Source: an uncultured Candidatus Binatia bacterium (GTDB lineage Bacteria > Desulfobacterota > Binatia > UBA9968 > JAJDTQ01). From it: a DNA stretch of 64,000 bases. The notes under the pieces were generated by a model that worked only from the letters and a program-made list of their open reading frames with translations, did no database searches and was not told where the DNA came from. The stretch is from NCBI GenBank assembly GCA_965204235.1, contig OZ241979.1, forward strand, positions 2,638,103 to 2,702,102, read 5' to 3'. Of the stretch, positions 26,816 through 29,394 are shown piece after piece; position 1 is the first letter of the stretch; every line of letters starts with the position of its first letter. Position numbers and translations under genes: made by a program.

Positions 26816-26834
26816 GCTGGCCTCCCAGGCCTGC

Positions 26835-26942
26835 TTGCATAGGACCGGTTATCTCCGTTGCATCTGCCCGGTTATCCTTGTTGCATATGGCCGGTTGTAT
26901 TGGTTACATATAGCCGGTTACTTCCATTGCATATGCCCGGTT
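26835..26942 (+). repeat. Array of five phased direct repeats, period 23 bp
   Basis: TTGCATAGGACCGGTT / TTGCATCTGCCCGGTT / TTGCATATGGCCGGTT / TTACATATAGCCGGTT / TTGCATATGCCCGGTT at 26835, 26858, 26881, 26904, 26927; 7-bp variable spacers. Confidence 0.9.
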
Positions 26943-26954
26943 CAGGCAGATGAC

Positions 26955-28217
26955 ATGATGGCAAGCGGCGCGTACCACTCCCGGATAGGCGATGCAGAGC
27001 TCGCCCGCCGGCTGCAATCCGCGGGCGCGGTGCTCATCGAGGGCCCCAGGGCCTGCGGCAAGACGGCCATGGCCCGCGAGGTGGCGGCCAGCGAGGTCTT
27101 GTTGGACGTGGACGAGAACGCGCGCCGCGCGGCCGCGGTGGATCCGATGCTGGTGCTGGCGGGGGACGCGCCGCGGCTCATCGACGAATGGCAGGTGGAA
27201 CCGGCGCTGTGGAACCACGTCCGGCGGGCCGTCGATCGGGGCAGGCTTCCCGGACAGTTCATCCTGACCGGCTCGGCGGCGCCCGCGGACGACCTCACGC
27301 GCCATACCGGGGCGGGGCGCATCTCCCGGCTCCGGTTGCGCACCATGACCTTGCTGGAGACCCGCCTGTCCACCGGCGAAGTCTCGCTGCGGGACCTGCT
27401 GCACGGCCGTTTCGAGGGCTGTGCGGATCCCGGCCTGACGCTGCGGGAGGTCGTCGCGCAACTTTGCCGGGGCGGCTGGCCCGGTGACCTGGACCTCTCC
27501 GATGAAGCCTGCCTGACTGCTCGCGCCGATTACCTGGAGGAAATCCGCCGCGTCGATATCTCCCGCCCGGATGGGGTCCGGCGCGACCCGGAAAACGTCG
27601 GCCGGGTGCTCCGCTCGCTGGCCCGGAACGTGGCCACCACGGTCAGCGCGCGGACCCTTGCAGCGGATGCCGGCGGCGAAGGCGGCCCGCTGGACGGCGA
27701 CACGGTGCGCGGCTACCTGGAGGCCCTGCGTCGGCTCATGGCCTACGAGGAGCAGCCGGCCTGGTCGCCGCACCTGCGCTCCCGGTCCTTCCTGCGTCGT
27801 GCTGCGAAACGGCATTTTGCCGATCCCTCCCTGGCGGCGGCCGCCCTCGGTGCGACTCCCGCCCGGCTGTTGGCGGACCTGGAGCTTCTGGGCCTGTTGT
27901 TCGAGTCCCTGGCCTACCACGACCTCTCCGTCTATGCCCGGGCCTGCGACGCGGCCGTCTATCACTACCGGGACAATACCGGCCTTGAAGTGGATACGGT
28001 GGTGGAGAACCGTCAGGGCGACTGGTGCGCCTTCGAGGTAAAGCTGGGCGCCGGGCAGACCGATGACGCCGCCCGGACCCTGCTGAGGTTCCGCGACCGG
28101 GTGGATGCGGCCAGGACCGGCGCGCCGCGGCTCCTGGGCGTCCTCGTCGGTTCCGGCTACGGCTACCTCCGGGACGATGGCGTAGCGGTCATACCCATAG
28201 GCGCGCTGGGACCCTGA
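26955..28217 (+). CDS. AAA+ ATPase (AAA_14) with C-terminal DUF4143 PD-(D/E)xK-like domain
   Basis: IEGPRACGKT, LIDEWQ, FILTGSA, GGWP, K.HFADPS, LFES, YHYRD..GLEVD..EVKLG. Confidence 0.88.
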   Translation: MMASGAYHSRIGDAELARRLQSAGAVLIEGPRACGKTAMAREVAASEVLLDVDENARRAAAVDPMLVLAGDAPRLIDEWQVEPALWNHVRRAVDRGRLPGQFILTGSAAPADDLTRHTGAGRISRLRLRTMTLLETRLSTGEVSLRDLLHGRFEGCADPGLTLREVVAQLCRGGWPGDLDLSDEACLTARADYLEEIRRVDISRPDGVRRDPENVGRVLRSLARNVATTVSARTLAADAGGEGGPLDGDTVRGYLEALRRLMAYEEQPAWSPHLRSRSFLRRAAKRHFADPSLAAAALGATPARLLADLELLGLLFESLAYHDLSVYARACDAAVYHYRDNTGLEVDTVVENRQGDWCAFEVKLGAGQTDDAARTLLRFRDRVDAARTGAPRLLGVLVGSGYGYLRDDGVAVIPIGALGP

Positions 28218-28265
28218 CGCGGTCTGCCGGGTTTGGCCTGCTTCCGTTCTCTCTCCCCCTGGAAG

Positions 28266-28312
28266 AGGGCGTCCTCCGCCTCCGCTTCGCTAGGCTCAGG
28301 ACGAACGGGAAT
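28266..28312 (+). mobile_element. MITE/REP core copy D (partial)
   Basis: GCGTCCTCCGCCTCCGCTTCGCTAGGCTCAGGACGAACGG. Confidence 0.55.
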
Positions 28313-28329
28313 GGAGGAAAGACCGGCGG

Positions 28330-29394
28330 TCAGATCTCCCGGAAGAAGTAGGGCCTGATGGATTGCAGGCGGTCTTCGTAGGTGTCCGGGTTCAGCAGCC
28401 ACAGGGTCGCCGCGATGCTGCTCAGGAGCGAGTTCCCGTCCTGGGAGGTGAAGCACATGCCCACCACCTCCCGTTCCCCCCTCAAGGCGAGGCTCTGGGT
28501 GACGATGGCGGTGTGGTTCAGGATGCGGCCGAACAGCCCGTGGTCCCGGCCGAACGAGAACACCGACGCCGAGGACTTCTTGTTGGTGACCGCGATGCGG
28601 GGGTTCGACCGCAGCCGCTGCACGAGCTGGTCCATGCCCACGGCCCGTTTGAGGATCAGGTTGAAGTGGATGGTGTGCATGTACTGGGTGTTGATCTTGA
28701 GGGCCGACGAGTAGATGTTGAGGTCCAGCCCCAGGGACTGGAACAGGTAATAGGCGTCCCGTCCCTGGTGGGTCCCGAACCGTTCGTCGTCGTGCCGCCC
28801 CACTTCGGGGGCCGGAATGAACTCCCCCTCCTGGCTGATGTCGTTGGCCCGGCGCATGCAGACGAACCTTCCGGCTTCGAGGTTGTCCTCCTTCTCCGGG
28901 CCCAGGGCCAGGGTGTCGATGAGCACCGCCAGGTTGTGGGTGTTGCAGCTCACCACCTGGATGAAACGGTCTTCCTCCCGGCGGAGCGCGGCGTCGTTGA
29001 TGCCCCGCGCGTACATCTTGCCGAAGCCGAACTCGCTTCCCTGCGCGATGAAGCCCTTGCCGTTGCCGGCGTACCGCTTGTAGTACTTCTCCTTGTTCTC
29101 GTTCCCCACCGGCGTGCAGTCGATGACCACGGTGGCCCGCTCGATGGCGGCCTCCGACTCGTAGGCGGGCTCCATCCCCAACTCCACGAACCGGTCCCAG
29201 TGCTCCCTGTCCGCGCTCAGTCCGGCCCCCTTGTCCCTGAGGGCCGTCACCTTCGACCGGTCGGTCACCCGGGGAGTCTGCTTGTTGAACGTCACCTCGT
29301 CGATCCCGAACGCCTCCCTGAAGGTCGATAGAATACCGATGAGGGGCTCACCGATGGTGCCCGTGCCGACAACGTGAACGATCTTCCGGTCCAT
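28330..29394 (-). CDS. Archaeal-type (class II) glyceraldehyde-3-phosphate dehydrogenase-like protein
   Basis: GTGTIG Rossmann motif, VIDCTP, AQGSE, VVSCNTH catalytic Cys, RRAND. Confidence 0.7.
   Translation of the reverse strand: MDRKIVHVVGTGTIGEPLIGILSTFREAFGIDEVTFNKQTPRVTDRSKVTALRDKGAGLSADREHWDRFVELGMEPAYESEAAIERATVVIDCTPVGNENKEKYYKRYAGNGKGFIAQGSEFGFGKMYARGINDAALRREEDRFIQVVSCNTHNLAVLIDTLALGPEKEDNLEAGRFVCMRRANDISQEGEFIPAPEVGRHDDERFGTHQGRDAYYLFQSLGLDLNIYSSALKINTQYMHTIHFNLILKRAVGMDQLVQRLRSNPRIAVTNKKSSASVFSFGRDHGLFGRILNHTAIVTQSLALRGEREVVGMCFTSQDGNSLLSSIAATLWLLNPDTYEDRLQSIRPYFFREI

Follow-up and report, generated by a model that had tools for sequence, protein, structure and literature searches.

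A phased 23-bp repeat array precedes AAA+/DUF4143 genes in part of the candidate defence family PDC-S01

The stretch of DNA analysed here, hereafter the window, comprises 64,000 nucleotides from the genome of an uncultured Candidatus Binatia bacterium (GenBank assembly GCA_965204235.1, contig OZ241979.1, positions 2,638,103 to 2,702,102), and it contains five head-to-tail copies of a 23-bp unit directly upstream of a gene for an AAA+ ATPase with a DUF4143 domain, a member of the candidate defence family PDC-S01. Comparison of homologous loci indicates that array and gene are partnered by conservation and did not come together by chance at this one locus, and the two most likely travel together, on the evidence of their sequence boundaries, as a self-contained module of 1.4 kb. 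The reading that we favour, and hold to be probable rather than secure, is that the units are cognate binding sites for a winged helix-turn-helix (wHTH) domain of the encoded protein, which would assemble on them and repress its own promoter. An earlier note, made from the letters of the window, had singled out the array and proposed several functions for it; its observation is confirmed and its interpretation, taken as a whole, is partly supported.

The array at the locus and among relatives

By direct reading the units start at 26835, 26858, 26881, 26904 and 26927, exactly 23 bp apart, and each consists of a 16-bp core followed by a 7-nt variable spacer. The core is composed of box A (TTGCAT), four variable nucleotides and box B (CCGGTT); it takes the form TTGCATnnnnCCGGTT in four of the five units and TTACATATAGCCGGTT in the fourth unit, where box A reads TTACAT. 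The spacers (ATCTCCG, ATCCTTG, GTATTGG, ACTTCCA and CAGGCAG) are mutually unrelated, and the five motif copies at 23-bp spacing that the earlier note had described are borne out both by this reading and by Tandem Repeats Finder (TRF), which reports an array at 26835-26942 with period 23, 4.7 copies and a score of 97. With up to one mismatch allowed, the motif has six matches in the window against 0.12 expected, a number reached in none of 100 shuffles. The exact motif occurs four times across the 4.0-Mb genome, always inside the array; one-mismatch matches elsewhere in the genome are single sites, three of them within repeated coding sequence, and none forms an array. The same whole-genome search did not find the motif ahead of unrelated genes, a possibility that the earlier note had raised.

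The array has a GC content of 50%, against 69-71% in its flanks. Between the end of the last core (26942) and the ATG (26955) lie the 12 nt that the earlier note had counted; the array was also said to fill the intergenic gap, and it does occupy most, though not all, of the 139 nt between the stop of the upstream DUF192 gene (26815) and the ATG. The start at 26835 that was given for the array coincides with the TTG of a mechanically called open reading frame (ORF) of 460 aa. In relatives, protein similarity sets in no earlier than residues 1-7 counted from the 26955 start, and hence the array is non-coding. Contigs assembled from four runs of two studies contain no insertion or deletion in the array, which is stable in those samples. 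An Rfam search returned no match at E up to 1 and, with spacers of 7 nt rather than of about the repeat length (23-50 bp), the arrangement stands apart from CRISPR arrays.

Relatives were gathered with the single window protein as query, yielding 80 loci whose proteins are 55-95% identical. The taxa given in the records of these loci are Binatia, Latescibacterota, Spirochaetia, Alpha- and Gammaproteobacteria, Actinomycetes, Elusimicrobiota, Gemmatimonadota, Nitrospirales, Bacteroidota and others, and together they span about ten phyla. TRF detects an array of period 23, or its 46-bp double, upstream of 33 of the 80. A scan of upstream self-similarity over the 33 lags from 8 to 40, with shuffles as the null, is more sensitive, and lag 23 was the best of the 33 in 70/80 relatives; 60/80 lay above all 40 shuffles, and four loci had a different lag above their null. 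Under a simple extension rule the arrays of relatives hold 2-11 units (median 4), and 55 of the 80 array regions end no more than 25 nt from the start of the protein match. Homologues on plasmids of Collinsella aerofaciens ATCC 25986, Bacteroides ovatus and Prosthecochloris aestuarii DSM 271, at 36-44% identity, carry 23-bp arrays of three to four units in all three cases. The question posed in the earlier note, whether homologues carry upstream arrays, is answered affirmatively by these two samples and by a second clade of the family, described below, with periods of 22-23 bp. At one locus (L110, approximately 923-1149) there are about 10 near-identical 23-bp units (TRF 9.9 copies, score 454; up to 11 units), which suggests recent amplification of the unit.

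The anatomy of the unit was established from 34 loci with at least three units anchored on box A. Within-array conservation is 0.75-0.99 at positions 1-16 versus 0.59-0.70 at positions 17-23, and the division into conserved core and free spacer that had been read from the window is therefore general. Box A, in the form TTRCAWWT, is common to all core classes and box B sets the class (CCGGTT, CTATCGCTGA, GTGCCGCTG, ATCCCCAT, CACCCGCTGGA or GTGGTC); one and the same class turns up in hosts that belong to different phyla. Distances between cores follow those between proteins (Mantel Spearman r 0.76, with 0/2000 permutations as high), and distances between spacer consensuses do so weakly (r 0.22). 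Within the protein, the third wHTH helix opens with residues (246-252) that vary with core class, and the wing motif HLRSRS is nearly constant. Since the rows are related, the correlation between core and protein signifies co-inheritance and co-divergence and is by itself no proof of co-adaptation.

Boundaries of the module and the wider family

When the window is compared with the 80 loci by blastn, only L037 aligns beyond the gene; at the other loci homology sets in within array or ORF and breaks off at 28207-28242, close to the stop of the gene at 28217. Foreign pairs that are 87-95% identical and lie in different contexts likewise align from the first units to 2-25 nt past the stop, the range over all non-syntenic comparisons being 0-25 nt. 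Of 41 related genomes, 40 possess the downstream neighbour in the window, a gene resembling glyceraldehyde-3-phosphate dehydrogenase (GAPDH). At 18/20 loci of congeners the site is empty: the GAPDH-like gene and the DUF192 gene converge directly, 1 to ~270 nt apart, and no AAA gene lies between them. Within the genus, 16 of the 28 genomes have a gene of the window's clade (clade W), at this same site only in one other genome (G010). Close relatives, at 78-82% protein identity, come from genomes whose records name four other groups. The homology boundaries and the empty sites support the view, put forward in the earlier note, of a self-contained system. At two loci (L101:930-2519 and L103:929-2516) perfect direct repeats of 42-44 nt, corresponding to the 3' half of tRNA-Arg(TCT), flank a segment of 1.55 kb that holds array and gene only, with no integrase inside; at L082:913-3433 the same repeats flank 2.48 kb, an acetyltransferase-like ORF included.

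Each of these features, that is the confinement of homology to array and gene at non-syntenic loci even in the most similar pairs, the empty site, the relatives in other groups, the scattered presence within the genus and the tRNA repeats around the 1.55-kb unit, would also be explained if the array served as cis-acting end or as recombination site for a minimal mobile cassette, moved by the AAA+/nuclease protein or by a recombinase acting in trans. A second end is nevertheless missing, since no copy of the unit (with four mismatches or fewer) lies within 200 nt downstream of the gene at any of 31 loci, a result equal to that in three control regions; this counts against the suggestion in the earlier note that the array marks the end of a single-gene mobile unit. 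The unit is one ORF, without transposase or integrase; no near-identical copies exist within the genome, where six aligned paralogues are ~27-30% identical to the window protein; and the tRNA repeats point to a trans-acting integrase, for which the array would be unneeded. A 9-bp direct repeat, GGCCTGCTT, brackets array and gene (26828-26836 and 28235-28243), but it is not kept in G010, the closest relative, and was for that reason set aside as a doubtful target duplication. We consider the array to be an unlikely recombination site, and cognate binding by the encoded protein remains the preferred reading.

The chromosome of the window genome contains 25 DUF4143 paralogues, and among five genomes with relatives of the window gene (G041-G045) four hold 13-28 each and the fifth holds 1, numbers that represent a large expansion of one candidate defence family. 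Upstream of the 25 paralogues TRF finds arrays of period 22/23 in 6 cases, every sequence different, and in the lag scan (8-40) five stand far above shuffled controls (scores of 48-54 versus a null maximum of 32-34). Genome-wide there are six arrays of period 22/23 with at least 2.7 copies, of which five precede DUF4143 genes; the sixth, a strong period-22 array at G000:C1:1113474, lies before an unrelated gene, beside elements resembling repetitive extragenic palindromes (REP). The cores of the five paralogues are all different and each exact core is confined, across the whole genome, to its own array. Two DUF4143 paralogues at G000:C1:1050054-1052539 lie tail to tail, 35 nt apart, with a 23-bp array on one of them only.

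A quick IQ-TREE phylogeny was computed from 63 rows, comprising the 25 paralogues of the window genome, 29 sequences from five other genomes and 9 relatives. Arrays are present in 14/15 rows of the window's clade (support 100) and in 8/8 rows of a second, clade P (support 99), with units of 22-23 bp; one three-row clade gives weak signals of two or three units, and the remaining clades of this tree have no clear array. Sampling of clade P was then extended across the phylum, where a search of 301 genomes gave matches in 17 and left 17 usable foreign loci: a lag of 21-24 lay above all shuffles in 7/17, one of which, at lag 21, resembles purine-rich low complexity, and lag 22 or 23 ranked first or second in 14/17. 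Where paralogues are without an array, as at G000:C1:3714365 (p3713295r, upstream region) and p1902714f, AT-rich inverted repeats such as TTGAGTAAAATTACTCAA often lie immediately at the start codon, and these may represent a different operator style of other clades.

The encoded protein, its promoter and a proposed mechanism

The protein matches Pfam DUF4143 (3.4e-31, 108.6 bits against a cut-off of 28.1) and AAA_14 (1.7e-10, 41.5 bits against a cut-off of 27), the sole further Pfam match being a sub-threshold AAA_16, and the PADLOC PDC-S01 profile PDLC04790 matches residues 6-386 at E 4.8e-65. The AAA_14 ATPase and C-terminal PD-(D/E)xK-like motifs recognised in the earlier note, EVD (E345-V-D347) and EVK (E361-V-K363), are borne out by the alignment, in which G30, G35, K36, D77, E78, D347, E361 and K363 are invariant in 44 sequences. 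An AlphaFold2 model was built on the 44-row alignment (mean predicted local distance difference test, pLDDT, 93; predicted template modelling score, pTM, 0.92), and its layout, as read from secondary structure, consists of an AAA+ core (1-135), a helical lid (~145-200), a wHTH (212-290) and a nuclease fold (291-415). The wHTH is predicted with high confidence and sits between the AAA+ and nuclease domains, where a central helical or wHTH-like region had been supposed; on our reading of the model it has a putative recognition helix at 248-260, followed by the wing HLRSRS..KRHF. The top Foldseek matches are the archaeal AAA+ ATPases SSO1545 (2fna) and PABY2304 (2qen), and next come STAND NTPases (NRC3, CED-4, Avs3), RuvB, DnaA and Orc1/Cdc6, with template modelling (TM) scores of 0.25-0.42 overall and a distant likeness to DnaA and Orc1 (TM 0.25-0.28). 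A sequence search of solved structures gave no meaningful match, the best being an unrelated P450 at E 0.019, and a complex prediction with two full-length copies gave no verdict on a homodimer (score 0.00).

Promoter elements, and often the start codon too, fall within the last units of the array. At 24/81 loci the end of a TAnnnT hexamer is 5-9 nt ahead of the predicted start, versus 16/800 control positions. In the actinobacterial class this hexamer is box A of the last unit, arranged as TACAAT + 7 nt + ATG, which we take to be leaderless-promoter geometry, as in actinobacterial leaderless mRNAs. The ATG forms the end of the last, partial box A at several proteobacterial-type loci, as TTGCAAATG, and falls within the last, partial unit in many relatives (for example L038-L043). 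In clade P the ATG is likewise inside the last unit, and the 'variable' parts of the last two units contain hexamers like those of the -35 and -10 elements, 17 bp apart (TTGCAT/TAGCCT or TTGTCA/TAGGCT). The earlier proposal that a 23-bp period, equal to a hexamer plus 17 bp, overlays the promoter is upheld in relatives, although no consensus promoter was found by a simple scan of the window itself.

An alternative is that RNA polymerase or a host regulator, and not the encoded protein, reads the array, which would then amount to stacked promoter elements or host-factor sites. Box A (TTGCAA, TTACAAT) does resemble -35 and -10 hexamers, which the 23-bp period would space 17-18 bp apart, and it is the box common to core classes while box B varies; but a general host reader sits poorly with a box B that differs among the paralogues of a single genome, with cores each private to their own array, and with a core class that persists in hosts of different phyla, and it is not obvious what purpose five to eleven promoters in tandem would serve. 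We judge this explanation quite improbable.

Cognate binding, the reading to which we return, takes its argument from the same distribution. Because cores are private to paralogues and yet belong to the same class across host phyla, the reader must travel with the unit, and the only protein that does so is the product of the neighbouring gene, which combines a predicted wHTH with an ATPase of an oligomerising kind and whose promoter and start the array covers. One AAA+/wHTH/PD-(D/E)xK protomer would read each 16-bp core, in which boxes A and B lie about one helical turn apart, the cores recurring every 23 bp; ATP-dependent contacts between AAA+ domains would arrange these protomers, typically 3-6 of them, as a short nucleoprotein assembly. 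With the promoter, and often the start codon, lying within the last units, occupancy would shut off expression of the gene, and a potentially harmful nuclease would be kept low, buffered and parked on its own DNA. Array and ORF would constitute the entire functional unit, exchanged between genomes. The conservation of array with gene, the fixed period, the privacy of the cores, the embedding of promoter and start, the boundaries of the unit and the domain architecture are directly supported; from there we infer binding, oligomerisation, repression and any defence output.

A more elaborate form of this mechanism is offered tentatively. At 10.5 bp per turn, 23 bp per unit amounts to ~68 degrees per protomer, and so, as a matter of arithmetic, to roughly five units per turn. 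The two PDC-S01 clades might accordingly be DNA-templated switches, in which a private promoter array nucleates a spiral of about five protomers, sets expression and holds the nuclease inactive until the state of the ATPase or competing DNA releases it, the array also bounding a 1.4-kb cassette that moves between phyla; we regard this as possible and no better than that.

Several points weigh against cognate binding and self-repression. The correlation of core with protein could, as a pattern among sequences, be plain co-inheritance of related rows. About two thirds of the sampled family paralogues are without an array, which is therefore not required by the fold, and the largest arrays, of up to 11 units (L110), exceed the need of simple repression. 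The simple promoter scan gave no sigma-70 consensus promoter for the array in the window. Given the likeness of box A to -10 and -35 hexamers, part of its conservation may serve RNA polymerase and not the protein. Lastly, in the published test of one PDC-S01 gene, protection of E. coli B against T4, T5 or T7 came from four candidates, and this gene was not one of them (10.1101/2024.09.26.614923).

The alternatives considered above and below are compatible with cognate binding and not exclusive of it. Were the array a set of iterons at an origin of replication, with the AAA+ protein as initiator, the 22-23-bp phasing would correspond to the spacing of plasmid iterons, the combination of AAA+ and wHTH to the make-up of Orc1/Cdc6, which like DnaA appears among the fold matches, and homologues do occur on plasmids. 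The unit is nonetheless found in chromosomes, between housekeeping genes, and 25 paralogues share one chromosome; no AT-rich unwinding stretch lies beside the array, whose flanks are GC-rich, no Rep family is matched in Pfam, and a nuclease domain would be unexpected in an initiator, all of which makes an origin very improbable. Neutral replication slippage could account for unit numbers varying from 2 to 11 and for the near-identical copies at L110, but is contradicted by the conservation of lag 23 in 70/80 relatives, by the same period at 36-95% protein identity across phyla, by cores conserved while spacers diverge at the 34 loci and by the strong concentration of arrays before one gene family, and is scarcely credible.

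Coordinates of the features in and around the module are collected in Table 1. The GAPDH-like gene has no Pfam match at E up to 0.01. Between it and the AAA gene, at 28247-28312, there is a multi-copy REP-like element containing CGCTTCGCTAGGCTCAGGACGAACGGG; contig depth spikes at this element in all four runs, and 33-bp tandem versions of it lie near other paralogues.

Table 1. Features of the repeat array, the AAA+/DUF4143 gene and their surroundings (positions in the window)
Feature	Position	Strand	Basis or remark
Segment in window genome and G010 only	26816..28329	.	Absent between convergent DUF192 and GAPDH-like genes in 18/20 congeners
23-bp unit array, n=5	26835..26949	+	Direct reading, TRF, motif scan, genome-wide motif search
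Degenerate sixth box A (TGACATgATG)	26950..26960	+	Direct reading; contains start codons ATG 26955 and 26958
AAA_14 + DUF4143 gene, 420 aa, PADLOC PDC-S01	26955..28217	+	ORF list, Pfam, PADLOC profile
Walker A GPRACGKT, residues 30-37	27042..27065	+	Alignment
Walker B D77-E78	27183-27188	+	Alignment
Predicted wHTH, residues 212-290	27588..27824	+	AlphaFold2 model, pLDDT 93; class-specific residues 246-252
PD-(D/E)xK nuclease-fold domain, residues 291-415	27825..28199	+	Pfam, alignment, AlphaFold2 model
Nuclease residue E317	27903-27905	+	
Nuclease residue D347	27993-27995	+	
Nuclease residue E361	28035-28037	+	
Nuclease residue K363	28041-28043	+	
GAPDH-like neighbour gene	28330-29394	-	Sub-threshold NCBIfam matches to type II glyceraldehyde-3-phosphate dehydrogenase

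PDC-S01 in relation to known systems

A conserved and private cis-element provides the first concrete, testable handle on PDC-S01, in the form of a defined candidate DNA ligand, and PDC-S01 constructs cloned with or without the native array may behave differently. Cultured carriers exist, namely the three plasmid-bearing hosts listed above. The tight boundaries of array and ORF, together with the empty sites, also furnish a clean case of single accessory genes moving between phyla.

PDC-S01 is described as a single-gene candidate, as yet untested and with no mechanism known, that ranks fourth in frequency among the 'defence systems' of prokaryotes, with ~39,000 detected instances (PMC12988326); a rumen survey places it among the most abundant defence systems and makes it the most frequent individual locus (PMC13356809). 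The origin of the PDC set is described in 10.1101/2024.01.29.577857, and the function of DUF4143 is given as 'Unknown' in PMC3424549. The window protein is a member of PDC-S01, which the available descriptions present as a single gene for an ATPase with PD-(D/E)xK, with no array mentioned. Those portions of the literature on DUF4143, COG1373 and PDC-S01 that were accessible make no mention of an upstream repeat array, and supplementary tables may hold details of PDC-S01. The earlier note had credited the family with no established function; this requires amendment in that the family is catalogued as a PADLOC candidate.

Among known systems, plasmid iterons of the RepA, pi and TrfA type are direct repeats phased at ~22-23 bp, each with two conserved halves that are separated by about one helical turn; in Rep systems the repeats overlap the promoter of the rep gene, leading to autorepression. 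The array described here is alike in its tandem repeats, phased at ~22-23 bp beside the gene of the presumed reader, in the two conserved halves of each repeat and in its overlap with the promoter. In contrast to the two-winged-helix Rep proteins, however, the protein joins an AAA+ ATPase to a single wHTH and a PD-(D/E)xK nuclease domain, and the unit is chromosomal, lacks an AT-rich unwinding element and occurs in up to 25 paralogous versions per genome. DnaA with its DnaA-box clusters, and Orc1/Cdc6 with its ORB elements, are AAA+ proteins with a helix-turn-helix or winged helix that assemble on repeated boxes, often beside their own gene. Both resemble the present protein in these respects and are found among its fold matches, but the resemblance is without Pfam or NCBIfam support and structurally remote by the TM scores given above, and they differ from an arrangement with a strict 23-bp period, a fused nuclease domain and no signs of an origin.

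The STAND-type regulators MalT and AfsR use oligomerisation as a switch, and STAND regulators and immune sensors (NRC3, CED-4, Avs3) share with the window protein an NTPase-helical-wHTH core and a fused effector domain; unlike them, the protein has no C-terminal sensor repeat domain, and its candidate trigger or scaffold would be a DNA array in its own promoter. ParR-parC and the heptads of the omega protein also have many direct repeats around the promoter of the binder's operon, where they serve autoregulation and the assembly of a higher-order complex, but the binders are small ribbon-helix-helix proteins without ATPase or nuclease and their units measure 7-11 bp, in place of 23-bp units and an ATPase-nuclease protein. 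Transposons of the Tn7/Mu type differ in turn, there being in our case no repeat copies at a second end and no transposase or integrase in the unit. Although it falls outside each of these classes, the arrangement works like iteron/Rep, DnaA-box and centromere-operator arrays, and what is new, as far as the accessible parts of the printed record describe the family, is the attachment of such an array to the already known and very abundant PDC-S01.

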